From a virus (taxonomy: Duplodnaviria; Caudoviricetes), in the IMG/VR virus record IMGVR_UViG_3300032117_002338, positions 1 to 53,414 of that record: a stretch of DNA of 53,414 nt; one strand, given 5' to 3'. The position numbers and the translations under genes were made by a program. Shown one piece after another: positions 5,020 through 47,200 of this stretch (position 1 is the stretch's first letter; each line of letters opens with the position of its first letter). The notes beneath the pieces are model-generated. The model had not been told where the DNA came from. It saw nothing but the letters and a program-made list of their open reading frames with translations, and searched no databases.

Positions 5020-5068
5020 CGCGGCGGCAAACATACCTGTGGTTGGCGGATCGATCGCAAGGGGAGAT

Positions 5069-7579: not shown

Positions 7580-8155
7580 ATGCAGTTTTCAGTACCCCTG
7601 TTGATCTATGAGATGCCCGCGTTGGAGGATTACAAGGCGCTGTATCCCAAGCATTTCTATGCCAAGCTTGTGCACAAGATCGCGACCAAGGTGCACTGGC
7701 GCACGATGCTCAGCGAGGCGCAGAACCATCGCTGCTGCTGGTGCGGCATCAAGGTCACGGAGCTGCGCGATCGTCCGGATTCAGCCACCATCGAGCATGT
7801 GGTACCCAAGAGCCACGGCGGGGCGGATCATCCCGATAACTTCGCCATCGCTTGCCACTCCTGCAACGGGAACCGCGGCGTCAAGAGCGTGGAGGATTTC
7901 ATGCTGCAGAAACGGTCAGCCAACGATAAAGCATCCCTCCGCAGGGAGCTCATGAACAAATTCGAGGTCAAGTCCAGTAACAATGCCGGCCGTGCACGCC
8001 TCAAACGCAAGTTGGATCTCAACCAAGCCAGGAACGCGGTGCTCACCGGCCTGCCCAACACATTCGAACCCGGCAGCAGGGCATATATAACGCATACCTG
8101 CGCTACAGCGCGTTGTCCAAGGAATCGCTGTGCCATGGGGATCCCCGCACGGTGA
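7580..8155 (+). CDS. HNH endonuclease (possible C-terminal frameshift)
   Basis: CCWC...TIEHVVPKSHGG...NFAIACHSCNGNRG. Confidence 0.88.
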   Translation: MQFSVPLLIYEMPALEDYKALYPKHFYAKLVHKIATKVHWRTMLSEAQNHRCCWCGIKVTELRDRPDSATIEHVVPKSHGGADHPDNFAIACHSCNGNRGVKSVEDFMLQKRSANDKASLRRELMNKFEVKSSNNAGRARLKRKLDLNQARNAVLTGLPNTFEPGSRAYITHTCATARCPRNRCAMGIPAR

Positions 8156-14972: not shown

Positions 14973-15512
14973 ATGATAGAGAAGCTGACCGATAGGGCTG
15001 GCAGGGCGCTGTACCTCATGCATCTGCTGAATCTCAACCGCGAGGATCGCATGCTGCGGTTCGCCGGCAACATGGATGGCGATGTCATAGTGGGCTACGT
15101 CAACAACATACCCGACACCGATCACCTGCTGGGTTATAGGTACGATGGGGAGCTGGTGGGGTTCGCCCACATCGGCTACATGGGAGATGGCAAGGCCGAG
15201 ATAGGCTTCAGCGTCGATTCGGAGGCCCGAGGCAAGGGCATAGGCGAGAGGCTGTTCAAGTACTGCGTGGACTTCTGCAAGCTCAAGGGGGTTGACACCA
15301 TATACACCTTCTGCCTGCCAACCAACGTCGCGGTGACGAGGATAGTGTCAAAGTCAGGCCTGAGCATCAGCAAGGATGAGCCGGGCACGGCATTGGCCAT
15401 AGATCAGCATCCAGACGTGTTGGCCTACTACACCGTCCTGGGGAACGAATACATGAGGAACATATACAACGTGAACCGCCACTTCATGCGGCCGTTGATG
15501 TTCGATCGATGA
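14973..15512 (+). CDS. GNAT-family acetyltransferase
   Basis: AEIGFSVDSEARGKGIGERLF acetyl-CoA motif; GGAGGTG RBS. Confidence 0.88.
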   Translation: MIEKLTDRAGRALYLMHLLNLNREDRMLRFAGNMDGDVIVGYVNNIPDTDHLLGYRYDGELVGFAHIGYMGDGKAEIGFSVDSEARGKGIGERLFKYCVDFCKLKGVDTIYTFCLPTNVAVTRIVSKSGLSISKDEPGTALAIDQHPDVLAYYTVLGNEYMRNIYNVNRHFMRPLMFDR

Positions 15513-16431
15513 ACCCATCCCTGGCCAAGCGCGACATCCTGGACACAGGCATGTCCATGCCAAGCTGGTGGCGTATGTGCTGCACCGGTATGTATATGGA
15601 TCCCAGATGGGGGAACAGAGCACCAAGCTTTTTCTCCATCGGCTTCCGCCAATGGTTGATGTTCTCATACCCCTCGTACTTGGGGCGGACGACCATGTCG
15701 GGCCACAGGCTGTGCAGGACCAATATCTTCTCGGGGCTGGTTGCGGTTGGCATGGCGGTCATGAAGTAGTCGGGATTGCGCAGCATGCATGCTATGAGAT
15801 CGATCTCTTGGTATGCCGCGAACAACTCAGGCGTGTCACTGAAGAAGTATGGGTAATGCACGGCGTGGTTGCGATGCAACCACTGCAATGGTGGTATGAG
15901 GTTGGTGTTCTTCTTCATGTGTATGCGGCGGTTGATGGTGGTGAATCCCTGCACTCCGCCACCGATGATGGCACAACCTCCGCTATCCTCGACGTGCTCC
16001 ATCAGAGCCAAGACCAGATATCTGTAGACACCGTTTGATTCGTACCCGTCGGCGCAGAAGCGACGGATGGCATCCTCCAGATAGGGGATGGGATCCACCT
16101 CCAACAGCTCATGGGCTATGCCCCGCTCGGTGCAGAAACGCTTGGCGTATCCTATGTCATGCTCGTTCGTGCCATCGGAGAAGCTGATGCTGAGCGCGGA
16201 GAAAGGTATGCCTTGGTCGTGGAAGGCCCTGGCGACGACCTCGCTGTCTATGCCGCCGCTCATGCACACTACCATGGGGCGTTTGGTTGATTCGGCTATG
16301 CGCCGTGCCTCCAGATATATCTCCTCCTTCCATGGCAGCAAAGGTCGGGTGATGGATCTAAAGCTGATGCCAAACCTATCCGCTATCGCAGCGGGGTTCC
16401 TGCCATCGAATCTGTAATCAAAGCATATCAT
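15484..16431 (-). CDS. PP-loop (adenine nucleotide alpha-hydrolase) ATPase-like protein
   Basis: VVCMSGGIDSEVV PP-loop motif. Confidence 0.75.
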   Translation of the reverse strand: MICFDYRFDGRNPAAIADRFGISFRSITRPLLPWKEEIYLEARRIAESTKRPMVVCMSGGIDSEVVARAFHDQGIPFSALSISFSDGTNEHDIGYAKRFCTERGIAHELLEVDPIPYLEDAIRRFCADGYESNGVYRYLVLALMEHVEDSGGCAIIGGGVQGFTTINRRIHMKKNTNLIPPLQWLHRNHAVHYPYFFSDTPELFAAYQEIDLIACMLRNPDYFMTAMPTATSPEKILVLHSLWPDMVVRPKYEGYENINHWRKPMEKKLGALFPHLGSIYIPVQHIRHQLGMDMPVSRMSRLARDGFIDRTSTAA

Positions 16432-16476
16432 GACAGCAGTATGCCAGCATGGCATGCATCAGGTCAAATAGTCAAA

Positions 16477-23386: not shown

Positions 23387-23802
23387 TGCGCATAGGGTTC
23401 ACCTGCAGCGCGTTCGATTTGTGCCATTCTGGGCACGTGGCCATGCTGCGCGAGGCCAAGGATCAGTGCGATTACCTCATCTGCGGCCTCCAGGTTGATC
23501 CGACCATAGATCGAACCAGCAAGAACAAGCCGGTGCAGACCATAGTGGAGCGCTACACGCAGCTGTCTGCGGTTAGGTATGTGGATGAGATCGTGCCGTA
23601 CGTGACCGAGGCTGATCTCGAGGACATATTGGCCATGTATCCCATCAACGTGCGGATACTGGGCGAGGAGTATCGAGACAAGGATTTCACCGGACGTGAC
23701 ATCTGCAAGAAGCGCGGCATCGATCTGCACTTCAACCGCAGGGATCACAGGTTCAGCACCACCGAGCTGCGCAACAGAATATCGTTGACAGGCAAGCCGT
23801 AA
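23386..23802 (+). CDS. Cytidylyltransferase (TagD/glycerol-3-phosphate type)
   Basis: GFTCSAFDLCHSGH HxGH motif, ERY, FSTT. Confidence 0.9.
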   Translation: MRIGFTCSAFDLCHSGHVAMLREAKDQCDYLICGLQVDPTIDRTSKNKPVQTIVERYTQLSAVRYVDEIVPYVTEADLEDILAMYPINVRILGEEYRDKDFTGRDICKKRGIDLHFNRRDHRFSTTELRNRISLTGKP

Positions 23803-23826
23803 ACGGTTATATTACATGCATAAAAC

Positions 23827-23900
23827 GCGGGGTTGGCATATGGGTTGTGCTCCAGCCTTCCAAGCTGGCTAAACGAGTTCGAGTCTCGTACCCCGCTCCA
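23827..23900 (+). tRNA. tRNA-Gly(TCC)
   Basis: CCAGC-CTTCCAA-GCTGG; U73; CCA. Confidence 0.92.
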
Positions 23901-23988
23901 TAGTTCGATCTGTCACCGACCCTTTCGTGGTTGGTCGCCAAGTCACAGAGGACATTCGAGCCGACGGCGTGAGGTTCAGCGTTTATAT

Positions 23989-24065
23989 TGCGGGTTAGAG
24001 AAGTGGTCCATCTCGCCAGCCTCATAAGCTGGAGATCCCTGGTTCGAATCCAGGACCCGCAACCA
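23989..24065 (+). tRNA. tRNA-Met(CAT), initiator-like body
   Basis: TGCGGGT/ACCCGCA-A-CCA; CCAGC-CTCATAA-GCTGG. Confidence 0.9.
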
Positions 24066-24110
24066 AGATTTGATAAGTATCGCAACCACTTAGACACGGG
24101 GAGGTGTGAT

Positions 24111-24269
24111 ATGAAACAGGGCAAGTTGGTCCGCAGGCTGTACGAGGCTTGCTTGGAGCACGATTTGGTGAAGCTGCAGGAGCTCCGCATGGAGGAGTTC
24201 GCCAAGATCATCAAGCGCAAATCCAAGGGCAAGGGTTTCGATGCCAAGTGGACGGTGGTTAGGTTCTAA
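24111..24269 (+). CDS. 52 aa basic hypothetical protein
   Basis: GGAGGTG RBS; TAAGTA upstream. Confidence 0.7.
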   Translation: MKQGKLVRRLYEACLEHDLVKLQELRMEEFAKIIKRKSKGKGFDAKWTVVRF

Positions 24270-24278
24270 GGGTTAGAT

Positions 24279-24353
24279 GGGTGGTTAGCTCAGAGGCAGA
24301 GCATCGGTGTTACATACCGACGGTCGGGATTTCAAAATTCTCACCACCTACCA
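24279..24353 (+). tRNA. tRNA-Val(TAC)
   Basis: TCGGT-GTTACAT-ACCGA; CCA. Confidence 0.88.
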
Positions 24354-24359
24354 ACGAAT

Positions 24360-24443
24360 GCGCTTGTGGCGAAATTGGGTAGACGCATCAGATTTAGGTT
24401 CTGACGGGCAACCGTGGGGGTTCGAGCCCCTCCAAGCGCACCA
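24360..24443 (+). tRNA. tRNA-Leu(TAG)
   Basis: TCAGA-TTTAGGT-TCTGA; long arm; CCA. Confidence 0.93.
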
Positions 24444-24461
24444 CAAACATAGGGGTTGAGC

Positions 24462-24638
24462 ATGGCCACCTGCAAGGTGATATACCACAGAGAGTTCCCC
24501 CTGGATATCATAGAATACGTGAACACGCTGGCCGAGGGCCTCAGGCGCACCAACAGGGGCGACGCATACGTCGTGGATGTGATCCACGACAAGACGGGCG
24601 AACCTCTGATAAAGATCAGGAAGATAGGCAAGGGATAG
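24462..24638 (+). CDS. Small hypothetical protein
   Basis: 58 aa, AGGGG RBS. Confidence 0.6.
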   Translation: MATCKVIYHREFPLDIIEYVNTLAEGLRRTNRGDAYVVDVIHDKTGEPLIKIRKIGKG

Positions 24639-24641
24639 AGC

Positions 24642-24836
24642 ATGACCGATTTCGAGACCAAATACCGCACGTGGCACACTCGCCTCAGCTACATCAAGAG
24701 CGCGATGCGCATCGCTTCATGCGGTCTATGCTGTTTCTCCGTCTGCGTGATAGGCAGCGTCGAGACCAGCGTGTTGGCCCTGGCTGGTGGATTGTTCATG
24801 GCCGAGCTGATCGGCATCGCCGAGGAATTTGTGTGA
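24642..24836 (+). CDS. Small membrane protein
   Basis: Two hydrophobic segments; ends AELIGIAEEFV. Confidence 0.7.
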   Translation: MTDFETKYRTWHTRLSYIKSAMRIASCGLCCFSVCVIGSVETSVLALAGGLFMAELIGIAEEFV

Positions 24837-24917
24837 TTGATATTGCTAAGCGTTGGCGTCGTCAGTAAATATTGTCAGTGCACGATGAGTTCGTGCATGC
24901 AAACGGAGGACACTGAC

Positions 24918-24995
24918 ATGGCATGGAACACACCTTCCATCGTTGAGATCTGCGCGGGTATGGAAGTCACATCCTACTCCTCGGCGGAGATCTGA
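24918..24995 (+). CDS. pqqA: Pyrroloquinoline quinone precursor peptide PqqA (MAWNTPSIVEICAGMEVTSYSSAEI)
   Basis: GGAGGA RBS; W-x-x-P leader and GMEVTSY E-x3-Y core of alphaproteobacterial PqqA; not in supplied track. Confidence 0.92.
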   Translation: MAWNTPSIVEICAGMEVTSYSSAEI

Positions 24996-25019
24996 GAACA
25001 AGCTGACGTATTGATACGG

Positions 25020-25053
25020 ATGGGAGAGATGATTCATCTCTCCCATTTCATTT
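25020..25053 (+). terminator. Terminator after pqqA
   Basis: ATGGGAGAGAT-GATTC-ATCTCTCCCAT then TTCATTT. Confidence 0.75.
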
Positions 25054-25098
25054 GACGGCAGGCTAGACCATACCGGGTGCGTGCGCTATAATTCGACG

Positions 25099-25353
25099 AT
25101 GGATAAGACCGAATTCTACGCTGAATGTGACAGGCTGCTAGGGCAGCATCACCCACCACCAAAGACATACGGATACAGGGGCCGTTGGGGCCCACGTGAA
25201 CCTGGTTCAGGGAGGTTCGAGGGATACGGGCTCATACGTTGGATGAGCCAGCGGGTGGTGCACATAGCGCTGAGGCATCCCGTGCACCTGCAGACGCATG
25301 CAACCCCCGAGCGTGCGCTGGAGATCCTAGCTGAGATGATGGAGACGCGGTGA
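25099..25353 (+). CDS. Hypothetical protein
   Basis: 84 aa ORF shortly after TATAAT. Confidence 0.65.
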   Translation: MDKTEFYAECDRLLGQHHPPPKTYGYRGRWGPREPGSGRFEGYGLIRWMSQRVVHIALRHPVHLQTHATPERALEILAEMMETR

Positions 25354-25520
25354 TGCTGCGCAAGGCATGGCGGTATTGGGCTAAGGCCCTGGGGGAGAAG
25401 GCATCCGACGATTCAGCCGAGGCTGACAGGGTGGCGCTGATAAGGACGGCCATAGTGCTGTGCTACATCATCACCAACTGCTTCATCGTCGCCGGCGTCA
25501 TCAAGCACTGGAACCAATAG
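25353..25520 (+). CDS. Small phage membrane protein (WRYWAKALGEKA...IRT type)
   Basis: 55 aa, TGATG overlap, C-terminal hydrophobic helix. Confidence 0.7.
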   Translation: MLRKAWRYWAKALGEKASDDSAEADRVALIRTAIVLCYIITNCFIVAGVIKHWNQ

Positions 25521-25522
25521 AC

Positions 25523-25582
25523 GCATCCGTAGCTCAGTGGAACAGAGCAGCAGACTTCGAATCTGCGGGTCGGGGGTTCGAA
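25523..25582 (+). pseudogene. 5' part of canonical tRNA-Arg(TCG), interrupted in the T loop
   Basis: GCATCCG-TAGCTCAG...GCAGA-CTTCGAA-TCTGC...GGGGGTTCGAA then breaks into HNH gene. Confidence 0.85.
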
Positions 25583-26290
25583 CATAAATAGAGTATGAAC
25601 TATAAGAAACTTTACGACAATATCATATCTAAGGCCAAAACAAGACCAATCTCAGGTTATACTGAAAGGCATCATATTGTACCCAAGTCGTTCGGAGGTA
25701 CTGATAAGAAAGATAACATCGTTAGGTTAACTGCTAGGGAACACTTTATCTGCCATTATCTCCTATGTAAGATAACAGTTCCTAAATCTATCGAATGGTA
25801 TTCGGCTATAAAGGCATTTAATATGATGTGTTCTAAATCTAACACACATCAAAGATACATTAACTCGCGACTATACCAGTCAATGCGACAGCATATGTCT
25901 ATTACAATGAGTAATCTTCAGTCTGGTTCTAAGAACTCTCAATATGGAAGTTGTTGGATAAACAAGGAAGGTATCGTAAAGAAAATTCCTCAAGAATATC
26001 TCACAACATATGAGCAAGAAGGTTGGCAAAAAGGTCGAAAACCTCCAAAACCTCCAAAAGTAAGACCAGACAAACCTCTGAGAATTCTGAAGCGTCCTCA
26101 ATCTTCGGGTGTTAAGAATAGCCAATTTGGCTCATACTGGATCAACAACGGTAAAGACAATAAGAAGATTCGATCATTAGATATTCCATCTGGATGGACC
26201 AAAGGTCGGTTAATGAAAATGATAAATTAGCACCCGTATGCCGCCTGGCTTCGAACCAGGAGAAAGCTAATGGAATCACGGGGGTTCGAA
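25583..26290 (+). mobile_element. AT-rich HNH cassette inserted in tRNA-Arg, bounded by 12-nt direct repeat CGGGGGTTCGAA
   Basis: Repeat at 25571-25582 and 26279-26290; abrupt GC drop. Confidence 0.75.
25595..26230 (+). CDS. HNH homing endonuclease
   Basis: MNYKKLYDNII...YTERHHIVPKSFGG...NIVRLTAREHFICHYLL; repeated SGxKNSQxGSxWIN..GWxKGR modules. Confidence 0.92.
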   Translation: MNYKKLYDNIISKAKTRPISGYTERHHIVPKSFGGTDKKDNIVRLTAREHFICHYLLCKITVPKSIEWYSAIKAFNMMCSKSNTHQRYINSRLYQSMRQHMSITMSNLQSGSKNSQYGSCWINKEGIVKKIPQEYLTTYEQEGWQKGRKPPKPPKVRPDKPLRILKRPQSSGVKNSQFGSYWINNGKDNKKIRSLDIPSGWTKGRLMKMIN

Positions 26291-26307
26291 TCCCTCCGGG
26301 TGCTCCA
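26230..26307 (+). tRNA. Non-canonical tRNA-Arg(TCG) lacking a positional D arm
   Basis: GCACCCG/CGGGTGC-T-CCA; only 7 nt before CCTGG-CTTCGAA-CCAGG; 19-nt variable region; canonical T arm. Confidence 0.7.
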
Positions 26308-26392
26308 ATTAAATGTTGACGCGTCATGCAACCGTCACACACCCGCGGTTAAATAACCGTGCGATGCAACGACAACACAGCAGGGGTGACAC

Positions 26393-27442
26393 ATGTCCAG
26401 GGTACTGTTCATACTGAAGCGCAGGGAAGATTTCAACAGTGCCGTGCACAACAAGATAGGGCTGACCACCGGCCTATACAACTCGGCCAAGTTCATGGAT
26501 GACATGCTGGTCGACAATGGCGTCGACAGCCGGTTGGAGGTGGTCATAGACAACAACGACATAGATAGGGTGGTCACCGCGCACAGGCCCACGCATGCGA
26601 TAATAGAGGCGCTATGGGTGGTGCCGACCAAGTTCGCGGAGCTGAGGAGATTGCATCCCAACGTGACATGGATCATACGCCTGCACAGCGAGATGCCATT
26701 CATGGCCGGCGAGGGCATGGCCATGGATTGGATAGGCGACTACAGCGGCATGGCCAACGTGATCATGGCCTGCAACGCGCCTAGGATGCTGAAGGAGATA
26801 CGCAGCTACCTGGGGATCCGCAACGGATGGAGCGAGGAGATCGCGGCGCAGAGGGTCATATACCTTCCCAACTTCTATCCACAGGCATACACGAACAAGC
26901 AGCCGGATCGCGAAAAAAACGTCATTGATATCAGCTGCTTTGGGGCCATCAGGCCGCTTAAGAACCATCTGTTGCAAGCACATGCCGCGATACAATTCGC
27001 GGAGGTCCTAGGCAAGAGGCTTAGGTTCCACGTCAACGCCGGGCGCATCGAGATGAAGGGCGAACCCATGGTCCACAACCTCAGGGGGTTGTTCCAACAG
27101 CTGGCGGAACGGGGGCATGCCCTGATAAACCACGAGTGGGCCCCGCGTGAGGAGTTCCTGCGTCTGTGCGCCACCATGGACATGGGCATGCAGGTCAGCT
27201 TCTCGGAGACCTTCAACATAGTGGCGGCGGATCTCATCAGCCAGGGCGTCCCTGTGGTGGGCAGCATCGAGATACCATGGATGACCGCGGACTGCTGCGC
27301 CGATCCAACCAACAGCGAGGACATGGTGGCCAAGATGATCAAGGTGTGGGACGATCCCTCCGCCGTGGTTTCGGCCAACCAATCGGCTCTCACCGAATAC
27401 ACCAACCAGACCGTGGCCCAATGGCTGCGGCAGCTATCATGA
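26393..27442 (+). CDS. Glycosyltransferase (GT-B fold)
   Basis: FGAIRPLKN, SFSETFNIVAADLISQGVPVVGS nucleotide-sugar motif. Confidence 0.85.
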   Translation: MSRVLFILKRREDFNSAVHNKIGLTTGLYNSAKFMDDMLVDNGVDSRLEVVIDNNDIDRVVTAHRPTHAIIEALWVVPTKFAELRRLHPNVTWIIRLHSEMPFMAGEGMAMDWIGDYSGMANVIMACNAPRMLKEIRSYLGIRNGWSEEIAAQRVIYLPNFYPQAYTNKQPDREKNVIDISCFGAIRPLKNHLLQAHAAIQFAEVLGKRLRFHVNAGRIEMKGEPMVHNLRGLFQQLAERGHALINHEWAPREEFLRLCATMDMGMQVSFSETFNIVAADLISQGVPVVGSIEIPWMTADCCADPTNSEDMVAKMIKVWDDPSAVVSANQSALTEYTNQTVAQWLRQLS

Positions 27443-27456
27443 CAGGGAGACATAGC

Positions 27457-27660
27457 ATGAGCAAGCATCACGGAAGACACAAGGTCAAGGCGCACAAGTG
27501 GAAGGACGGGATACTCAACGTCCAGGAATATCTGTTCGACACGTTCGAGAACGCGGTGTTATGGGCATCGGGAGCCGGCGCCGACAGCTACAAGATCTAC
27601 GACGATGGAGAGCAGCTGGTGTACAGCGGCGATCTCACCGACATAGAGACCTACGCCTAG
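27457..27660 (+). CDS. Small hypothetical protein
   Basis: GGGAGA RBS, 67 aa. Confidence 0.7.
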   Translation: MSKHHGRHKVKAHKWKDGILNVQEYLFDTFENAVLWASGAGADSYKIYDDGEQLVYSGDLTDIETYA

Positions 27661-27675
27661 CAGCGGAGTGATAGG

Positions 27676-28173
27676 TTGGAGACCATCGGCAGTGTCGTTG
27701 AATTGACCTGGGATGATGTCTTGCCTATATGGCGAGACGTGTTATGGCCCGGACGGATATCCCCGATAAAGCAGCACAGCAGCATGAGATACCTCGGCGG
27801 ATACGATATGTCTGTATACAGCAATCCCGTGCACTTCTGGGGATTGCGCAGCAGCGATGGATCTGTGACGGCATTGACCAGCGGATTCAAGACATCCGAC
27901 CACTTGTATCGCAGCCGCAGCATATGGATACATCCCAGTCTGAGGAAGAGGAATATCACGAGAATCCTCTTCGATAAGACATTCGAGACGGCGAAATCTC
28001 AGGGATGCACAGCCGTCTGGAGCTTTCCTCGACCATCTGTGATATCAAGCTATGAGAGATACGGGTTCAGACAGGTCAGCGATTGGGTCATGGACGGGGA
28101 ATTCGGTCCGAACTGCTATGCCATAAAACACTTCGCCGAGCGGCCTGCCGATGCCGAACATGCCACCAGATAA
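27676..28173 (+). CDS. GNAT-like protein
   Basis: YRSRSIWIHPSLRKRNI...AKSQGCTAVWSFPR..YERYGF. Confidence 0.75.
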   Translation: METIGSVVELTWDDVLPIWRDVLWPGRISPIKQHSSMRYLGGYDMSVYSNPVHFWGLRSSDGSVTALTSGFKTSDHLYRSRSIWIHPSLRKRNITRILFDKTFETAKSQGCTAVWSFPRPSVISSYERYGFRQVSDWVMDGEFGPNCYAIKHFAERPADAEHATR

Positions 28174-28180
28174 ATATCAC

Positions 28181-28630
28181 ATGTCATCAGGTATCATGGT
28201 AAGATTGAAATCGGCGTACCAATGGGCGGTGGCCAGGGCCATGCGCGATTACACCATAGCGCGACGACTGGAGCTGGGCATAGAGCAGACCAAGCCCGTC
28301 GCCGACTTCAACGAGAGGTTCACCGAGGTGGAGGCCAGCATAATCCAGGCCTTGGGCGGGCCCGACGGCAGGGTGGCCGAAGCCCTCCTGCGGTATCGAC
28401 GGTTCGCCACTGACCACGAGGTGGCGGAATGGCTGATAATAGATGCCCTGGAGTTTGGCTTGGCCCTCATGACCGGGATACTGGGTGCCATGGCCATATA
28501 CGCCGTGATAACGGCGTTGGATGACATCATCAAAGGTGACACGCTGAGCGAGTCGCTGCTGAGGGCCGCGGGCAGCGCCAGCACAGAGCTGGTTCCCACG
28601 GGACAGATAGTGGACACCCTCATCAAGTAA
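28181..28630 (+). CDS. Hypothetical late membrane protein
   Basis: ATG 4 nt after TAAATA; one hydrophobic segment. Confidence 0.7.
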   Translation: MSSGIMVRLKSAYQWAVARAMRDYTIARRLELGIEQTKPVADFNERFTEVEASIIQALGGPDGRVAEALLRYRRFATDHEVAEWLIIDALEFGLALMTGILGAMAIYAVITALDDIIKGDTLSESLLRAAGSASTELVPTGQIVDTLIK

Positions 28631-28752
28631 AACACCAATTTAACCAACGGATAATTAAACCTCCACATAAATAAATCTGGCCAGGGGAGAAATCCCTGGC
28701 GTTAGATCCATTATGGTTCAGGGGATTCTCCCTGATAGGCAGGAGGTAAAAA

Positions 28753-30159
28753 ATGGATAAGAACCTAAGGGCGGAGCTGTCTGCCCTGAAGAGCGAGGTC
28801 TTGGCCAATCTCAAGGGATTGGAGAAGGTCGTCGCCAACATAGACAGCAAGATGACACAGATAGACAGCGGGCAGGTTAGCCTCGAGGAGGAGTTGGTTG
28901 ATCCCAAGGCCTTGGAGGAGGCGCGTGCCTGGGTCAAGGAGTGGGACGATGCATACGATAGCACCCAGAAGAGCATCCGGGAGAGGAGTGCAGATTTCCT
29001 CAACCCAACCCGAGAGCCATTCAAGGATCCGCTGGATGACAAGAGCCTCGTGGGCTTGATCAGCAAGGCCCGAGAATGGGATGAGTGGACATATGAGCTG
29101 TTCAACGCCCAGTGGGACAAGAAGAAGAAGCAGCGCGCGGAGGGTGCCATAAACACCATCAACATGTTCGTGGCTGACGTCAAGACCCGCAAGGGTTTGG
29201 CCACCGTGGTCAAGGATATCAACGATGCCAATCGTGCGTTGGAGGACATAAACCATCTGGAATCAGCCAAGGCCGAGATATTAAAGCAGTGCGACATGGC
29301 CATCATTGATCTAAACTATCTGTTGTCAAAGCGAGATGACCCAGATGGCTTTGCGTTCTATTACCAGGTGTTGAATGATCTGGTCGAGGCCGTCATAGCC
29401 GTGCAAGCTGGTGCAGGCGACAGGAATGCCGCCGCCATCAGCACGTTGGTATGGCTGTTGAAATCCATGCTGGAGACCAACGAGAAGGAGCAGTTCGATT
29501 ATGTGGCCCTTGATCCCATCACCTTTGAACCGGTCAGGTTGGAGGGTGAGAAGCTGAGCAAGTACAGGGATGTCAGGCTGCGCGAATACAACCGCGATCT
29601 CATGAACGCATTCGAGTTCAAGTCCAAGCGCGACGGCAGTTGGCGCCGGTGGCCGGGCACGGACATGCCCAGCATGGATGAGGTACTAGACAAGGTGCAG
29701 GTGGCGGCCAAATCTGGAGATAAGCAGCTAGCAGAAGCTGCACAAGCATTTGAGATGGCCGTGATCAAGGCAAGGCAGGAGAGTGATGCTGCTACCGTCA
29801 ATGCTATCGAGAAATCCAATGATCTCATCAGAGAAGTCAAGGAGGCGCTGAAAGAGGTCAGCGCGAGACCTGAGCCGGAGGTTGCGGTGAGCATACCATC
29901 CCATAGGTCAGAGGCTGACGCCAAGAGGTTGGAGATCGTTAAGGATGCTGTCCATGCTCAATATAAGACCGGCAATCTCGGCAGAGAGGCCAAAGGATCA
30001 ATATCCGATATCAAGAAGGCACGTGACATCGTGCGCGAGCATGAGGCGGCCCGCAAGGCTGTCGATAATGTCCGAGGCACCTGTGAAGAACGTGTAATCT
30101 CAGCGTTTTCAAAAAGGCCCTACGGGGCCTTTTCTCGCGATCGTGTCATGATATCGTGA
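28753..30159 (+). CDS. Helical/coiled-coil hypothetical protein
   Basis: AGGAGG RBS, 468 aa. Confidence 0.8.
   Translation: MDKNLRAELSALKSEVLANLKGLEKVVANIDSKMTQIDSGQVSLEEELVDPKALEEARAWVKEWDDAYDSTQKSIRERSADFLNPTREPFKDPLDDKSLVGLISKAREWDEWTYELFNAQWDKKKKQRAEGAINTINMFVADVKTRKGLATVVKDINDANRALEDINHLESAKAEILKQCDMAIIDLNYLLSKRDDPDGFAFYYQVLNDLVEAVIAVQAGAGDRNAAAISTLVWLLKSMLETNEKEQFDYVALDPITFEPVRLEGEKLSKYRDVRLREYNRDLMNAFEFKSKRDGSWRRWPGTDMPSMDEVLDKVQVAAKSGDKQLAEAAQAFEMAVIKARQESDAATVNAIEKSNDLIREVKEALKEVSARPEPEVAVSIPSHRSEADAKRLEIVKDAVHAQYKTGNLGREAKGSISDIKKARDIVREHEAARKAVDNVRGTCEERVISAFSKRPYGAFSRDRVMIS
30111..30133 (+). terminator. Terminator-like hairpin
   Basis: AAAAAGGCCC-TACG-GGGCCTTTT. Confidence 0.65.
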
Positions 30160-30214
30160 CATACCGTTCGATAAATACCGGAGGATGGGATGGTCCCATC
30201 ATGAGGAGGATGTG

Positions 30215-30733
30215 ATGAGTTGGAATCCATTGACGTGGCCGATAGTGAAGACGCTATTGGATCTGGAGCATAAGGCCGCCACACAGGTCGGCAAGGTGGA
30301 ATCGAGGTTGTCGCTCTCAACCTCCAGCGTGGTGCACGCCGCCGAAGGCAACGCCGTGCAGATAGCCAAGGATGCCGCCAACAAGGCCAAGGCCTTGGCG
30401 GATGATGCGGTGGCAAAGGCGCAGGCGGCGAGGACGCTGCTGCAGACGGCGCTGTCCGATGCGGCTGACAAGGCCGAGGCGGCCAGGGCGGCTTTCGAGT
30501 CGGCGGTCAAGACGGCAGCCGATGAGACTGCAAACCTGACGCAGAGCCTGGCGACCGCCACCGATGACGCCGCCAAGCACGCGGCAGCGGCGGCCAGCAT
30601 AGCATCGGCGGTGGCCAACGCCAACGTGTCGGTGTCATCGTCTGGTGTGGCCGTGAGCATAACCGCGCCGTCTGGGAACGTCACAGCTAACGCTGATGTT
30701 CTTGTGTTTGATAATGGCACCACGGCATCGTAA
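30215..30733 (+). CDS. Ala-rich hypothetical late protein
   Basis: GAGGAGG RBS; TAAATA upstream. Confidence 0.75.
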   Translation: MSWNPLTWPIVKTLLDLEHKAATQVGKVESRLSLSTSSVVHAAEGNAVQIAKDAANKAKALADDAVAKAQAARTLLQTALSDAADKAEAARAAFESAVKTAADETANLTQSLATATDDAAKHAAAAASIASAVANANVSVSSSGVAVSITAPSGNVTANADVLVFDNGTTAS

Positions 30734-30763
30734 CCCACTGTGAAAGTTGGATGAAATATTGAT

Positions 30764-30790
30764 AAAAGGCCCTTCGGGGCCTTTCTTCTT
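30764..30790 (+). terminator. Intrinsic terminator
   Basis: AAAAGGCCC-TTCG-GGGCCTTT CTTCTT. Confidence 0.85.
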
Positions 30791-30909
30791 GATACAAGAT
30801 ATCGAATCGGTTGACATCATATAACCAATAATATACAGTCGACGACATGATCTTGCCAGGTAGACTACCTGTCAGGCAGTTACCTGCTAAACCATAATGG
30901 AGATAGTAT

Positions 30910-32265
30910 ATGACATATCCGCACGAGGATCCACGAGATATATTTGGACAGGATCTAATCAAGGTGTTTGGCCCAAAGGCTGAGCGCAAGCATGTGAAAG
31001 ACCTCACCTACAGGGAGCGTGAGGAGATCATCAAAAATGTGCCGAAGTACATCGACACCTATGATATCGGTGCCCGTCCGAGCATCTTCCAGGTCACCAA
31101 CAAGATCCTCACCGTCCTGCAGCAGTCCGGTGCGCTCATGGGCGTCGACCTAGATTGGTGTGATGACCTCCGCAAGGGTGCCCTAGTCAGGCACGACAGC
31201 GCATACGTTGACGTCAGCATCTGCTACAAGAACAACGACGTGCAACGCGGCATCTGGTTACAGCATCTGGTCCAGGACATCTTGTTCTCTTTCAACCCAA
31301 CCAACGTGCTCAGCGGGTTGGCTCGCAAGCTCAGCGATGGCACGGTGAATCTCAACAACGGGCAGCATCGAACCATCGCCTGCGTGATCGTCGGAGTCAG
31401 ACAGGTCCCGATCGAATACATCGCCAGCGATAGCATCAGCATCGACATCGACGAATATGCCACTGACAACCTCAACACTCTGTCCAGCAGCGAGTTCGAT
31501 GAGATTCGCATCCGCGTTTGGCGCAACAAGGTACGCAAGGCAGAGGGTCGCACCGATCTCGATGATGAGGACATCAAGGTAGAGGAGCTTTGGGACATCC
31601 ATGCCGCCAAGCAGAGCCGATTCGTAGAGGTGGGTACCGCCAATCCCAAACCGCTCGAGTGCACGAGTGCCGGTAACATGCGCAAATATTTCAAGCATTA
31701 TGGGAATGATCTCTACACCCGTGCCTTGGACATCAACTGCACGGTTTGGAGCAAGACCGCCATCAGCAGCGCCAACTGCTGGGGGTTAATGGAATTCCTC
31801 GTGACGCAGCGCGACCTCCGGGGATTGACAGGCAGCACGGTGGATTTCGCCGTGCAACAGGCCATACAGCACAGATACAGCAACCCAGGCCGCGGCAAGA
31901 AGCAAAGCAGCAACCCAGGCCGCGGCAAGAAGCAAAGCAGCAACCCAGGCCGCGGCAAGAAGCAAAGCAGCAACCCAGGCCGCGGCAAGAAGAAACACAG
32001 CGTCGGCATGCATAGCGAATTCAAATCCATCATCAAAGAGAATCCTGTGGCCCTTGAGCTCAGGATCCCGGAGGAGAAGATCGTCGCCGCTGGAATTTAC
32101 AAGATCTGCAAGGTCGTGCGGCCAGACGTCAATTGGGCACCGATCATGTTCAACGGCATGAACATCGCTGACGATTTCATGGGAGAGTATCGAATCATGC
32201 CTTGCGCTACAAACACAAGGGTGTCGCACGATCTGGTTCAGTTGACCTCGGCGATGGAGGCTTAA
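30910..32265 (+). CDS. ParB/DGQHR-like domain protein with internal tandem repeat
   Basis: LNNGQHRTIA motif; SNPGRGKKQS repeats. Confidence 0.7.
   Translation: MTYPHEDPRDIFGQDLIKVFGPKAERKHVKDLTYREREEIIKNVPKYIDTYDIGARPSIFQVTNKILTVLQQSGALMGVDLDWCDDLRKGALVRHDSAYVDVSICYKNNDVQRGIWLQHLVQDILFSFNPTNVLSGLARKLSDGTVNLNNGQHRTIACVIVGVRQVPIEYIASDSISIDIDEYATDNLNTLSSSEFDEIRIRVWRNKVRKAEGRTDLDDEDIKVEELWDIHAAKQSRFVEVGTANPKPLECTSAGNMRKYFKHYGNDLYTRALDINCTVWSKTAISSANCWGLMEFLVTQRDLRGLTGSTVDFAVQQAIQHRYSNPGRGKKQSSNPGRGKKQSSNPGRGKKQSSNPGRGKKKHSVGMHSEFKSIIKENPVALELRIPEEKIVAAGIYKICKVVRPDVNWAPIMFNGMNIADDFMGEYRIMPCATNTRVSHDLVQLTSAMEA
31878..31992 (+). repeat. Perfect 30-bp tandem repeat, 3 full copies plus 25 nt
   Basis: Unit CAGCAACCCAGGCCGCGGCAAGAAGCAAAG. 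Confidence 0.97.
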
Positions 32266-32266
32266 C

Positions 32267-32803
32267 ATGGATATCCACGGTGAGATCAACGAGAGCATCC
32301 GTAACAGGGCTTTGCACACAGGGTTTGACGACGGTACCTACTTCACGCAGGAGCTCTACAATTTCGCCGTCGATCACTATGATGATCCATTGGTGCTGTT
32401 CAAGATAAAGATCTATGGCTACTACGTCCCTAAGTACAAGTGGACGCGGCAGCAGGCGGATTGGTTCATCGAGAACAACGCCAAGGATGCCATTGGGCAC
32501 TCGGACGGCGAGCATGAATACCTATATGATTGGGGACGCGGCCACAACAAGGTTACCGAGCATATGATGCACGAGCCTAACCTGGATCACATCAATCCCC
32601 GCAGCCTAAGCAAGGACAACCGTCCCGAGAACTTCCGCATCCGATGTGCCCGACTCAACGAGAACAAAGGCAACATGGTCAGCGATCGCGAGCGACGCGC
32701 TACCATCATCGACATGTTCATGGACATGGGAGATGCCGAGCGCATGTCTTTGCTAGAGCACCTCGGTAGAGTTACCCGTATATCGGAGACAATGGATGCG
32801 TGA
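32267..32803 (+). CDS. HNH-motif nuclease
   Basis: NLDHINPRS...PENFRIRCARLNENKG. Confidence 0.78.
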   Translation: MDIHGEINESIRNRALHTGFDDGTYFTQELYNFAVDHYDDPLVLFKIKIYGYYVPKYKWTRQQADWFIENNAKDAIGHSDGEHEYLYDWGRGHNKVTEHMMHEPNLDHINPRSLSKDNRPENFRIRCARLNENKGNMVSDRERRATIIDMFMDMGDAERMSLLEHLGRVTRISETMDA

Positions 32804-35129
32804 TAACGAGCAGATGGCAAGGTCAGTCGATGATGGCAGCCATATGATTGAACCCAAGAATGCCAAAGAAGCGAGCGCATCATATCACGACAGGATGTAC
32901 TGCTACCTATGGTACGAGAAGACCAACCCAGACGAATGCAAGTTTGGAGAGAGATATGTTCCGGCTGGGAAGGATCCCAGCCGTGAGGTTTGGAAACGCA
33001 TCAAGGACAGCGTGGGGGTACGCAAGGATCTCATCAAGGACGGCACCATCGTGCTGGAGCGCACCTGGGATGTCAGCGAGTATGCGAGGAAGGTCGATCG
33101 CTTCTACAGGCACGGCAAGGTTGACGATCACATACGACCACACATAGGGTTCAGGAAGAACACGACCGGCGAGATCCACGGGCTGCCAGCCGGAGAGGTG
33201 GCCGTCAAGGTCGACCGTTTCCTGGCTGCCATGGGGCAGCCACTGCCGGTGGCAGGTTTGGCGGCTTGGCAGGCACGCAGCACCGAGGACATCCTCGAGG
33301 CCATCGGCGATGGCAAGAGGACCATCGTGGCCGAGCTATGCCCGCGATTCGGCAAGACCATATGGACTGGGGCGCTGGCCAGGGAATCTGGTCGACGGCT
33401 GACCATAGTGGCCAGCTACGTGCTGACATCGTTCTCCAGCTTCGAGAACGATCTGTCGCGCTTCGACCAATTCAAGGACATGGTCCTGGTTGACATGTCA
33501 AACGGCGAGCATGCGAAGATAATAGATTCAGCGTTGGCCTCCGGCAAGCAGGTGGTGGCCTTCCTCAGCATGTGTGCGGGTGGCAAGCGCCAGCGCAAGA
33601 TAGACTACCTGTTTGGGTTGGATGCCAAGAGGTTGCTGGTGATAGATGAGGCCGACTTTGGGGCGCACAAGGCCGCACAGTCCAAGCCACTTATCTCCGC
33701 ACGCGACCCAGACGACGTCGTGGTTCTCATGACCGGTACCAACGCGGACAAGGCGATCGGAACCTGGCACGTGGATCACATGCTAAGCGTGGTGTATCCA
33801 GAGCTGCTGATGGAGAAGCGCAACAGGAGACCCGGCCATCCAACATCGCTGAGGTTCTTCAAGATTGACCCCAGCCGGCACGATCTCGTGGTGGACGTGG
33901 AGTTCTACCAGATGGATCTCCGCAGCGCCGTTGAGCTGGCCAGGGACTCCGATCCCGACATGTTCGTGAAGGACGGCATCTTCCTACCCAGCTGGAGCAA
34001 GTTCGCCGCGCATCCGGTCAAGGCCAAGGGATTCTGGACCCGCATGCTGCAGGCGGTGTTCATGGGACAGCATGGGCTTGACGAGCTCAACGTGGACTAC
34101 CAGACCAATCGCAGGGCCAAGGAAGGCCAGAGGGTGGCCATGATGTTCCTCAGCGGCAGCATGACCAACGATAACCTAACGGAGGCGGCCGCCTTGGCCC
34201 AGCAGGCCCTACCGGGTTACCACGTGGTGCCGGTGTACGGCGAGGCCATGACCAACCGCACCGCCGAGCAGAAGGTCAGGGAGGAGATAGCGCGAGCCAA
34301 GCAGCGAGGGCAGAGCGTTCTGCTGCTCAGCGCAGGCATGGCATCACGCAGCTTCAGCAGGGGTGAGATCACCGAGCTGTACCTCGCCTATGACAACGGC
34401 GACAACGGCGCCACCATGCAGAAGATAGCGCGGACCCTGACCCCGGATATGCTGGGCAAGGTCGGCCGCGTGATCAGCCTCAGCTTCGATCCCAACAGGG
34501 ATGACAAGTTTGATTCCATGCTGATCGAGACCGTCATCAACTACAAGAACAGCCGGGAGATGCGCAGCGCCAAGGACGCGCTCAGGGATGTGCTGCGCAC
34601 CGTCGATATCTTCAGATGCACCAGCGATGGTTCGGTTAAGATAGAGGCGGACACCTACCTGGAGGAGGCGCTGGCACGCAACAGCATCAGTAGGGTCATC
34701 GGAAAGGTGGCTGACATCACCAAGCTCACGCCGGCGGAGCTGCTGGCGCTCAGCGAGGGCAACATAGACAAGTTCAAGGCGGCACTGCGAGAGACCGCTG
34801 ACAAGGGCAAGACCAGGGATGGATCCGCGGTGGCCGGGGACGGCGGTACAGGTGGCGATATGCCCGACATCACCGAGGACATCATCGCTGACGTCAAGAG
34901 GATCATCGCCACCATAGTGGAGAACCTAGACATCATCGTTCTAGGCACCAACACCACCGAGATAAACGATGCCTTCGATGTGCTTGAATCCAATCATGAG
35001 ATGAGGCGTGCGGTGATCGAGGAGTTTGGTGTTGACTTCTCCATAATAAGGGATCTGTTTGACAGGGGTGTCATCAACCAGGATCTGCTGGAGCTGCAGC
35101 TGGATGTCTCCAACAAGGGAGCGGCATGA
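32796..35129 (+). CDS. SF2 (DExD-like) helicase/ATPase, restriction-subunit-like
   Basis: ELCPRFGKT Walker A-like, VIDEADFGAH, LMTGT, QKIARTLTP. Confidence 0.85.
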   Translation: MRDNEQMARSVDDGSHMIEPKNAKEASASYHDRMYCYLWYEKTNPDECKFGERYVPAGKDPSREVWKRIKDSVGVRKDLIKDGTIVLERTWDVSEYARKVDRFYRHGKVDDHIRPHIGFRKNTTGEIHGLPAGEVAVKVDRFLAAMGQPLPVAGLAAWQARSTEDILEAIGDGKRTIVAELCPRFGKTIWTGALARESGRRLTIVASYVLTSFSSFENDLSRFDQFKDMVLVDMSNGEHAKIIDSALASGKQVVAFLSMCAGGKRQRKIDYLFGLDAKRLLVIDEADFGAHKAAQSKPLISARDPDDVVVLMTGTNADKAIGTWHVDHMLSVVYPELLMEKRNRRPGHPTSLRFFKIDPSRHDLVVDVEFYQMDLRSAVELARDSDPDMFVKDGIFLPSWSKFAAHPVKAKGFWTRMLQAVFMGQHGLDELNVDYQTNRRAKEGQRVAMMFLSGSMTNDNLTEAAALAQQALPGYHVVPVYGEAMTNRTAEQKVREEIARAKQRGQSVLLLSAGMASRSFSRGEITELYLAYDNGDNGATMQKIARTLTPDMLGKVGRVISLSFDPNRDDKFDSMLIETVINYKNSREMRSAKDALRDVLRTVDIFRCTSDGSVKIEADTYLEEALARNSISRVIGKVADITKLTPAELLALSEGNIDKFKAALRETADKGKTRDGSAVAGDGGTGGDMPDITEDIIADVKRIIATIVENLDIIVLGTNTTEINDAFDVLESNHEMRRAVIEEFGVDFSIIRDLFDRGVINQDLLELQLDVSNKGAA

Positions 35130-36397
35130 TGGCCAAGAAGATCAAGGCCAAGGACAAGGCCACGCTCGCGAGGTTAAAGTTCAGGCTGGACAGATTGGTG
35201 GGAGAGATATTGGATTTGATCCCACAGGACGCCATAATACACGGCATCGTTCTGGATCCGGCCGTCGCCGGTGGCCAGTTCGTGAAGGAGATAGAGCGCA
35301 GGAAGCGTGCGGCTGGGAAATCCGATGAGGAGATACGGCAGACCGTGTTTGGCATAGAGGACAACGTGCTGCGTCGCAACTACGCGGTGTCCAAGAATGA
35401 TCTCAAGGGCACATACACTGTGGAGGATGCGATGGCCAAGGATTTCCAGGGCATGAGGTTTGATGTGATAGTGGGTAATCCACCGTTCCAAGAGACCGAC
35501 GACGATGGCAACCGCAAGAGCCTCAGCAGCAACCTGTGGAGCAAGTTCATAGATAGATGCGCCAATGAGCTGCTCGAGGAGGATGGGTACATGGGCATGA
35601 TATCCCCCGCAAGCTGGGCCGGGCCGACCAAGAACCTCAGCGGCGACAGGCACATCATGAGGGACATATTGGCCAAGAAAGACACCACCCATATCAACAT
35701 CAGCGACGATCTCAACCTTCACTTTGGTTCGGTTGGTAGCACCTTCTCATACTTCGTGCTGCGCAATCAACCCTACGGAGGCAAGACCACCGTGACGCTG
35801 GGCAGGGATATCACGGCGGAGATCGATCTGCGCGACCACAACTGCCTACCTAGGATCAAGCATCCCCTGTCGTTTGGCATCAACCAGAAATATTTCTCCA
35901 AGGTGGGAGGCAACGTGATCGATGGGCAGCTCATGGGCAGCAAGAGAGGCATACGCTACAGCGAGTTCAAGGACGAGACCTTCAGCCATCGCGTGTACCA
36001 CACGGCGGCCAAGGGAGGTAGATATTGGTACACCAACATACCCCATCCGAGGCTGAACGCCCACAAGGTCATGATAAGCATCAGCGGCATCTACAAGCCC
36101 GTGTTGGATAGGGGAGAGATCGGCTACAGCAACATGTGCCTGGCCTACATAGTCAAGGATGGAGAGACGGTGGAGAGCGCCTTCTCGGTGATCAACAGCA
36201 GGTTGTTCCATTGGGTGACGAAGGCCAACAAGTGGAGCGGATTCAACAACAAGGAGGTCATCAGGCGCTTCGCGCTGCCCAAGCTTGACCACGTCTACGA
36301 CGACGAAGAGATATTCGATCACTTTGGGCTCACGCCAGAGGAGAGGGAGTTCGTTTGCCAAACGGTGAAAACAACATCCGACGCAACAGACGGGTGA
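35126..36397 (+). CDS. N6-adenine DNA methyltransferase (Eco57I/gamma-like) with target recognition region
   Basis: LDPAVAGGQF motif I, FDVIVGNPPF motif IV. Confidence 0.9.
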   Translation: MMAKKIKAKDKATLARLKFRLDRLVGEILDLIPQDAIIHGIVLDPAVAGGQFVKEIERRKRAAGKSDEEIRQTVFGIEDNVLRRNYAVSKNDLKGTYTVEDAMAKDFQGMRFDVIVGNPPFQETDDDGNRKSLSSNLWSKFIDRCANELLEEDGYMGMISPASWAGPTKNLSGDRHIMRDILAKKDTTHINISDDLNLHFGSVGSTFSYFVLRNQPYGGKTTVTLGRDITAEIDLRDHNCLPRIKHPLSFGINQKYFSKVGGNVIDGQLMGSKRGIRYSEFKDETFSHRVYHTAAKGGRYWYTNIPHPRLNAHKVMISISGIYKPVLDRGEIGYSNMCLAYIVKDGETVESAFSVINSRLFHWVTKANKWSGFNNKEVIRRFALPKLDHVYDDEEIFDHFGLTPEEREFVCQTVKTTSDATDG

Positions 36398-36904: not shown

Positions 36905-37912
36905 ATGGGTAAATGGCCACACAAGAAGGCGGATGTGACGACCATCCAGCTTCAGATCAGCAACTTCTGCAACCTATCATGCCCCAGCTGTGCCAGGCAA
37001 TCCCGAAGGGACGGCGGTGAGAAGGTCAGCGATACCTTCCTAGACCTAGGGTTGATGCAACGCAGCTTCGTGCCAGGCGAATGGCCCAGCATGAACAGGG
37101 TGCTCATATGGGGCAGCATCGACGATCCCACCATGCATCCACAGCTGATACCGATCATCAAGCACTGGCTATCGATCAACGACACGCTTGAGATAAGGGT
37201 ATCCACCAACGGCAGCACGAGGACGGAGAACTTCTACTCCAGGTTGGGTGGGTTGAGTTTGGAGAGCAACCATCGCTTGAGGATCATGTTCGCCGTCGAC
37301 GGGTTGGAGGACACCAATCACATATACAGGGTTGGCAGCGACTGGAACAAGGTAAGGAGCAACTGGCGAGCCTACATCGCGGCGGGCGGATCAGCCATCT
37401 GGCAGTTCGTCGTGTTCCCACATAACCAGCATCAGCTTGAAAGCATCAGATCGCTGCATGTGGAGGAGGGGTTTGACAGGCTGGTGGTTCGCTACAGCGG
37501 TCGACCGCATGTGGACACGGATGTGAACGTGACCTCATTGGACGATCACCGGGAGAATGCCACGGTCATATGCAAGGCGATGAGGGGGCACGAGACCGCA
37601 CCCGATGCCACCAGATTGTCCCCCGAGCTATTCGTCAACCATCTGGGAGACGTCACGCCATGCTGCTACATAGATCCCAGCAACATCTTGGTCAGGGACA
37701 GGTACAGGAAGATATTGGACGGATTAGGCGGCGATGCCGCATGCAACCTCAAAGCGGCCAGCATGGATCGCATCATCGACGGACCTTGGTTCGATTGGCT
37801 GCATGATAACCTGCAGACCAACGGCGAATGCGTGACGCATTGCAAGCATAACCATGTGGATAGGCTGGTGAGGCAACCATGGAATCCCAAGGCGAGGCCG
37901 GCAGCCACCTGA
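36905..37912 (+). CDS. Radical SAM protein with SPASM-like C-terminus
   Basis: CNLSCPSC, STNGS, VDGLEDTNHIYR, GDVTPCC. Confidence 0.9.
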   Translation: MGKWPHKKADVTTIQLQISNFCNLSCPSCARQSRRDGGEKVSDTFLDLGLMQRSFVPGEWPSMNRVLIWGSIDDPTMHPQLIPIIKHWLSINDTLEIRVSTNGSTRTENFYSRLGGLSLESNHRLRIMFAVDGLEDTNHIYRVGSDWNKVRSNWRAYIAAGGSAIWQFVVFPHNQHQLESIRSLHVEEGFDRLVVRYSGRPHVDTDVNVTSLDDHRENATVICKAMRGHETAPDATRLSPELFVNHLGDVTPCCYIDPSNILVRDRYRKILDGLGGDAACNLKAASMDRIIDGPWFDWLHDNLQTNGECVTHCKHNHVDRLVRQPWNPKARPAAT

Positions 37913-44396: not shown

Positions 44397-44509
44397 ACGC
44401 TGTCAACCATTAAATCTCGATCACATGTGCATGCATGTTTGATATTCAGGTTGCGCCTCCCGCGGCGTCTTGGTTAAATAACTACAGTGAAAACGCGGGA
44501 GTTCCACAC

Positions 44510-46447: not shown

Positions 46448-46451
46448 TACA

Positions 46452-47195: not shown

Positions 47196-47200
47196 GGGGT

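Follow-up and report, generated by a model that had tools for sequence, protein, structure and literature searches.

A pqqA gene of alphaproteobacterial type in the tRNA region of a large uncultured freshwater phage

The window analysed here, a linear stretch of 53,414 nucleotides that makes up the whole of IMG/VR virus record IMGVR_UViG_3300032117_002338, carries within a tRNA island a gene for PqqA, the precursor peptide of the cofactor PQQ. CheckV puts the completeness of the record at 13%, from which a phage genome of several hundred kilobases follows. As is characteristic of viral auxiliary metabolic genes, the gene lies on a bona fide viral genome and is a homologue of a host metabolic gene. 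In our best reading, which we consider moderately probable in its full mechanism, it is a phage auxiliary metabolic gene that would feed the host's PqqD and PqqE for PQQ synthesis.

The gene (24918..24995, + strand) begins with ATG at 24918-24920, ends with TGA at 24993-24995 and comprises 25 codons plus the stop; the translation is MAWNTPSIVEICAGMEVTSYSSAEI. An earlier note, made from the letters of this DNA without database searches, had proposed that the 25-aa ORF is PqqA and had suggested a search with the family model. The peptide passes both curated models, namely Pfam PF08042 with 32.7 bits (E = 7.3e-8; cut-off 21.1) and NCBIfam TIGR02107 with 37.1 bits (E = 2e-9; cut-off 20), and a six-frame family search of the record recovers the same site at 30.6 bits. 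The Glu and Tyr of PqqA (E-x3-Y) are cross-linked and become PQQ; in the present peptide these are Glu16 and Tyr20 (E-V-T-S-Y), which have the E-x-x-x-Y spacing of the family. Members of the family are very short ORFs (about 20-30 aa) with their own start signal, as is the case here. Linkage to pqqB/C/D/E, a further though not obligatory trait of the family, is absent from the 53 kb at hand, which are some 13% of the genome. The pathway roles of PqqA, PqqD, PqqE, PqqB and PqqC are established knowledge (cf. Zhu and Klinman 2020). A longer frame of 52 aa starting with TTG lacks such an RBS signal, and it is from residue 2 of the 25-aa form onwards that the model aligns. From the sequence and the two models, the identification of 24918-24995 as PqqA is close to certain.

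The gene belongs to the phage, because contigs from other studies bridge it and because similarity to bacterial DNA is limited to the ORF and its ribosome-binding site. The region 24300-25700 is present in 20 sequencing runs from 14 studies, mostly labelled as lake water or freshwater and one flagged as the possible source; no RNA run is among them, a negative that carries no weight for or against expression. Four runs from four studies, which include contigs of 69-120 kb, were compared over 23500-26500. In run X2, from another study, a 776-nt contig is identical over 24397-25172, while in run X3, from a third study, a 6542-nt contig covers 23503-26500 and differs from the window by 24 substitutions and a 9-nt deletion at 26038, the latter being in-frame and inside the HNH ORF. 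The contigs from these two studies bridge tRNA-Leu, the upstream ORF orf64, pqqA, its terminator and the next gene, and they contradict the assembly chimera for which the earlier note had allowed, in which a piece of host DNA would be joined to phage DNA at pqqA. We regard such a join as extremely improbable. The GC content does drop, from about 0.55 elsewhere to 0.509 in 24001-26000, but the drop coincides with the AT-rich HNH ORF (25595-26230), and bacterial similarity ends at the edges of the pqqA ORF. No strain differences are found inside pqqA in the X3 strain, which is about 99% identical; at a divergence of about 0.8%, 78 unchanged nt are expected by chance and are no test of selection.

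The other contents of the window also fit a phage. There are 30 tRNA genes plus two further matches to the Rfam tRNA model, a NAPRTase (3-1046; 218 bits), four radical SAM ORFs (3039-3998, 3988-5019, 4949-6403 and 36905-37912), an Eco57I-type methylase (35126-36397), a PrkA/DUF444/SpoVR trio and the HNH ORF, and a phage contig from IMG/VR (L335) shares four syntenic blocks with the window. The large ORFs at 26393-35129 had hardly any Pfam or PHROG matches, and thus no structural hallmark gene was identified within the window.

Several of these elements deserve mention for their own sake. The trio at 44435-49931 consists of PrkA (567 bits), DUF444/YeaH (500 bits) and SpoVR (528 bits) in a row, an arrangement which is usually a bacterial stress operon; Ralstonia phage RsoM2USA and some uncultured phages of 630-640 kb also encode relatives of this PrkA. 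Radical SAM ORF 4949-6403 belongs to the twitch-domain family NF033640 (346 bits), and one radical SAM ORF resembles viperin and STM4011, with scores that fall well short of the cut-offs. A further HNH-domain ORF (7580-8155) shows IscB/Cas9-like similarity far below the cut-offs, and a QueC/asparagine-synthase-like ORF (15484-16455, - strand) is found among the tRNAs. The two additional Rfam tRNA-model matches, at 25523-25578 (30.5 bits) and 26230-26304 (39.4 bits; gathering score 29), flank HNH ORF 25595-26230, and ARAGORN called neither of them. The second has very deep cover from unrelated contigs. The first contains a short inverted repeat (25549-25554/25562-25567) in which five changes per side in runs X3 and X7 look compensatory, suggesting a maintained RNA stem.

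All three expression signals that the earlier note had read around pqqA were found. The ribosome-binding site, GGAGGA at 24905..24910 (+ strand), was read from the sequence 7 nt before the ATG. A promoter-like TAAATA motif lies at 24866..24871 (+ strand), 46 nt upstream of the start codon. This hexamer occurs 22 times in the window compared with 6.0 +/- 2.2 times in shuffled sequences, none of 100 shuffles reaching 22, and it is strand-biased, with 18 of the 22 copies on the + strand and 4 on the - strand; among the 64 hexamers composed only of A and T it is the most frequent on the + strand (mean 3.8). Twelve of the 18 + strand copies are preceded by A, and every one of the 18 is located 3-79 nt upstream of the next start of an ORF of at least 24 codons, the starts at 10021, 25595, 30185, 36905, 42543, 42943 and 50297 being examples. 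We take the motif to resemble the T4 late promoter TATAAATA. TAAATA probably acts as a promoter, although its enrichment could in part reflect AT-rich intergenic DNA. TATAAT is likewise strand-biased in the window (9 copies on the + strand, 0 on the - strand), and the two motifs may mark two promoter classes. A simple consensus scan called no sigma-70 promoter upstream of pqqA; one of its calls, TAGACC-17-TATAAT at 25064-25092, is directly past the terminator.

Downstream of the gene, at 25019..25054 (+ strand), is a hairpin resembling an intrinsic terminator, with a perfect 13-bp stem (25019-25031/25035-25047), a 3-nt loop and then UUCAUUU. Its dG is -25.8 (z -5.05), and none of 200 shuffled sequences folds as well. 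The simple consensus scan called no terminator downstream of pqqA, and the terminator is therefore claimed from the fold. The sole strain difference within it, T>A at 25033, falls in the loop. The region 24837-25055 as a whole folds with dG -78.1 (z -3.70), and both the MFE and the centroid fold contain an 8-bp hairpin at 24878..24898 (+ strand), in the predicted 5' untranslated region, which may serve as a 5' stabiliser. The upstream neighbour, orf64 (24642..24836, + strand), encodes 64 hydrophobic amino acids and is possibly co-transcribed; it has no Pfam match, and its strain differences are two synonymous changes (24647 and 24788) and one Val to Ile change (24759). The arrangement of these signals suggests that pqqA forms a short monocistronic transcription unit.

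The earlier note had recognised no pqqB-E and had called the gene stand-alone. Within the window this stands: no PqqB, PqqC or PqqD was found, and the two best scores of the PqqE model, 18.3 and 16.3 bits, fall far short of its cut-off of 381. As a positive control, the PqqE and PqqC models scored above their cut-offs in all three control bacterial genomes. PQQ_2 propellers and PQQ-type dehydrogenases are also absent from the 53 kb. The 53 kb seen make up about 13% of the phage genome, and the description "stand-alone" holds only for them. With a CheckV completeness of just 13%, some 87% of the genome lies beyond the window and might contain pqqB-E, or at least pqqD/E, in which case the phage would bring a whole or partial pathway, and the accessible text of PMC13188868 lists virus-encoded pqqE and pqqD besides pqqA. 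We consider this quite unlikely, since none of five large viral records with pqqA, including one of 356 kb that is 96% complete, has PqqE above the cut-off, and no PqqE-like match at E <= 0.01 occurs in any of five complete cultured Methylophilales phage genomes with pqqA. There is, moreover, no pqqE near pqqA in the window, unlike in bacteria such as Methylocapsa, where the two genes are less than 1 kb apart. Linkage to pqqB-E is not obligatory for the family, because orphan copies exist in bacteria: in the alphaproteobacterial MAG OY969936 pqqA is about 700 kb from pqqE. Two or three copies of pqqA within 8 kb are found at 27 of the 120 bacterial loci listed, and gene dosage appears to matter in bacteria.

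The closest bacterial PqqAs, those of Methylocapsa polymorpha RX1 and MAG OY969936, are identical to the phage peptide at 21 of 25 residues (84%). These Hyphomicrobiales chromosomal copies have the same length of 25 aa and the same W-x-x-P...EIC.GMEVTSY.SAEI pattern; the window copy differs from them in lying in phage DNA behind upstream signals of phage type, with nucleotide identity of about 74% (55-56 of 75) that is confined to the ORF. Nine or ten of the 21 identical residues use different codons. A scan for EIC.GMEVTSY in one genome per species returned at least 120 matches. Those listed belong to Methylobacterium, Methylorubrum, Lichenihabitans, Alsobacter, Xanthobacter, Chelatococcus, the Beijerinckiaceae Methylocella, Methylocapsa, Rhodoblastus and Beijerinckia, and unnamed alphaproteobacterial MAGs, and among them the motif is limited to Hyphomicrobiales-type genomes except for one MAG contig labelled Nakamurella. 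A scan for WNTP-type PqqA gave no closer relative (6 loci, at most 18/25), nor did 401 sampled genomes of the order to which Methylocapsa belongs, 83 of which had matches, the best at 84%.

The earlier note had called the peptide Methylobacterium-type. The pattern W-x-x-P...EIC-x-GMEVTSY-x-SAEI is borne out, but the 25-aa form ending in SAEI, which is that of a Beijerinckiaceae-like set (Methylocapsa, Methylocella, Rhodoblastus and MAGs), is closer than the 29-aa form of Methylobacterium (21/25 versus 18/25). The sequence type does lead to the order Hyphomicrobiales, as the pointer to an alphaproteobacterial host had anticipated. Phage alleles mirror the host group in the Methylophilales phages described below, and we read the window allele as a pointer of the same kind; the match to Beijerinckiaceae-like PqqA makes an alphaproteobacterium of this Hyphomicrobiales kind the most likely host, on the strength of a 25-aa peptide with a best identity of 84%. 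The host may also be methylotrophic. PrkA was tried as a second host marker and set aside, for it is 65-71% identical to many Proteobacteria, with the best matches in Alphaproteobacteria, which is too flat to name a host.

Genes for PqqA are widespread among uncultured viruses. A scan of IMG/VR with a general PqqA pattern gave at least 120 loci, the match being parsed in 119 of them (all except L095), and at least 119 contigs carry PqqA. In all 119 parsed loci the match lies in a short ORF in which a Met precedes the Trp by 1-4 codons and a stop follows the Tyr at a distance of 4-5 codons. Ninety-nine are of the kind G[FM]E[VI]T[MLA]Y and 20 of the kind GLEIN[SC]Y; this second viral type (...VGLEIN[SC]YACAE[KI]) is seen in L008, L013, L017, L019, L026 and 15 other loci. 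The motif type of the window was found in only one other IMG/VR contig, a 71-kb piece of an unrelated phage (L244). The neighbours of viral pqqA are phage genes, among them YqaJ (29 loci), a cell-wall hydrolase (22), Sak (21), capsid (17), an RNase H-like exonuclease (16) and a T7-type primase-helicase (15), as identified from representatives of the commonest gene clusters, 3 of 10 of which had no Pfam match. One 72-kb record (G005) also has an ORF for a 628-aa PQQ_2 beta-propeller at about 34.4-35.7 kb, some 6 kb from pqqA, a combination resembling the pairing of methanol dehydrogenase and PqqA from Lake Baikal in the accessible text of PMC7678222.

Cultured phages carry the gene as well. The search of short ORFs in phage databases that the earlier note had suggested, run by tblastn with the majority viral peptide, returned 12 GenBank phage records. 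Methylophilaceae phage P19250A is 100% identical to this peptide, eight other records are the Methylophilales phages MEP301, Venkman, MEP401, MEP402 and four Melnitz isolates, and the remainder comprise one uncultured Caudoviricetes and two weak Acinetobacter phage matches (E 0.09). All nine phage peptides tested pass the Pfam PqqA model, with 34-43 bits. The same search with the window peptide against 50,697 GenBank phage records gave no match at E <= 10, though it is a weak search for 25 aa. In P19250A, Venkman, MEP301 and MEP402 the pqqA site is unannotated, and in Melnitz-1 (L538 1498-1566), where the gene is situated just before tRNA-Leu, only an opposite-strand ORF is annotated. As in the window, pqqA of these cultured phages (P19250A, Venkman, MEP301, MEP401/402, Melnitz) is a stand-alone gene, of 23-25 codons, and that of the myophage Melnitz is located among tRNA genes. 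The allele is different: theirs is the Methylophilaceae one (EMRFGFEVTMY...; type EMRFGFEVTMYVMN), which occurs almost only in Methylophilaceae genomes among the at least 120 matches listed, whereas that of the window is alphaproteobacterial.

A more direct comparison is offered by ORF 26393-27439, which has 102 relatives in IMG/VR, including complete terminal-repeat genomes of 329 kb and 149 kb. Whole records of five large phages sharing this ORF were searched with the Pfam model, and two have pqqA above the cut-off: G007, of 329 kb with terminal repeats and 100% complete, and G009, of 160 kb and 99% complete. Their homologues of ORF 26393-27439 are 57-58% identical to that of the window. In G007, pqqA (L389 7395-7466) begins about 340 nt past this homologue and precedes an array of at least 12 tRNAs, so that, as in the window, it is found beside both; pqqA thus lies in or beside a tRNA region in the window, in G007 and in Melnitz. 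In G007 and G009, unlike the window, the allele is Methylophilaceae-type rather than alphaproteobacterial, and the gene order around pqqA differs. Judged from the sequences, the pqqA allele in phages sharing this ORF differs with the likely host. It is possible, and we put it forward tentatively, that phages of PQQ-dependent bacteria repeatedly take up the pqqA allele of their host or exchange an existing one for it.

No PqqA is present in the 200 kb of the record (G006; 39% complete) to which L335, the closest relative found, belongs. This relative retains the tRNA-Gly(tcc)/Val(tac)/Leu(tag) trio and, in the syntenic place, an orf64-like ORF of 79 aa without pqqA, which marks pqqA as accessory within the tRNA region. 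Its absence from the syntenic interval of L335 and from three of the five whole records above, together with the variable surroundings of HNH ORF and tRNA genes, would also suit a neutral passenger, that is, a host gene caught in a plastic tRNA island with homing endonuclease genes, of no benefit and due to be lost. This we judge unlikely. From all bacterial copies found the gene has diverged, identity reaching at most 84% of aa and 74% of nt, with about ten synonymous versus four non-synonymous codon differences; it is preceded by a motif that is enriched in the phage itself and followed by a clean terminator; and many unrelated phage lineages carry pqqA, in alleles matching the host group.

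The presence of four radical SAM ORFs in the window raises another alternative, in which the peptide has nothing to do with PQQ supply and is either a decoy tying up host PqqD/E or the substrate from which a phage radical SAM enzyme makes another product; the accessible text of PMC11118758, on RiPP mining, mentions co-expression of a PqqA RiPP family and defence systems. The radical SAM genes are, however, 12-19 kb from pqqA; all four match other families, and none is PqqE-like (at most 18 bits versus 381). The window has no PqqD-type recognition domain, the peptide retains the full PqqA signature including E-x3-Y, and a PqqE-like radical SAM is entirely lacking from the small complete phages that carry pqqA. 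A function of this sort is very doubtful.

A supply of precursor to the host pathway, the reading that we prefer, would operate as follows. A small transcription unit made up of a TAAATA-type promoter, the 5' hairpin, a strong ribosome-binding site, 25 codons and the terminator would yield a predicted pqqA RNA of roughly 170 nt, from which the PqqA peptide would be made in quantity during infection. Host PqqD and PqqE would then join Glu16 to Tyr20 of the phage peptide, and host PqqB and PqqC with a peptidase would complete the cofactor. As one peptide is consumed per PQQ molecule, the phage would top up the stoichiometric substrate of PQQ synthesis; periplasmic PQQ-dependent dehydrogenases (methanol, alcohol or sugar) would be kept supplied and would provide energy for phage production. 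Since PQQ is a recycled cofactor, it is not evident why additional precursor would be required in the course of a single infection cycle. We offer the idea that the stoichiometric precursor, and not the enzymes, limits PQQ during infection.

The earlier note knew of no description of pqqA in phages, and here it is contradicted by the literature. A viral population from Lake Baikal, VP_266, has PqqA and a methanol dehydrogenase, and boosted methanol oxidation was proposed (Coutinho et al. 2020, Microbiome, PMC7678222), while virus-encoded pqqA, pqqE and pqqD are listed in PMC13188868, as far as the accessible text of the two papers goes. No further reports of viral pqqA were found in the open-access literature; in the accessible text of the Melnitz paper (PMC9004378), PQQ appears only as a medium ingredient, at 1 nM in the medium for OM43. 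According to what is accessible of the Baikal paper, VP_266 and the present phage are alike in that PqqA is encoded on a freshwater-lake phage genome and read as an auxiliary metabolic gene in support of PQQ-dependent methanol oxidation. VP_266 was assigned to Methylophilaceae methylotrophs and carries a methanol dehydrogenase; the window, by comparison with that account, has an alphaproteobacterial allele and no PQQ-type dehydrogenase in 53 kb, and derives from a much larger phage. What is new here is the alphaproteobacterial allele, the setting in a huge phage, and the difference in allele from large phages that share genes with it.

Viral pqqA, described so far for phages of Methylophilaceae, is extended by the window to a phage whose allele is alphaproteobacterial. 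The gene is too short for gene callers and is unannotated even in cultured phages, with the consequence that a common viral metabolic gene is largely invisible in databases. The allele type may help to assign hosts to huge uncultured freshwater phages. If phages do repeatedly acquire or swap the pqqA of their hosts, PQQ formation in infected cells would in general be limited by the supply of precursor, and the host group of a phage could be read simply from its pqqA type. Manipulation of PQQ by viruses would in that case not stop at Methylophilaceae but would also concern, in lakes, alphaproteobacterial methylotrophs or methanotroph relatives.
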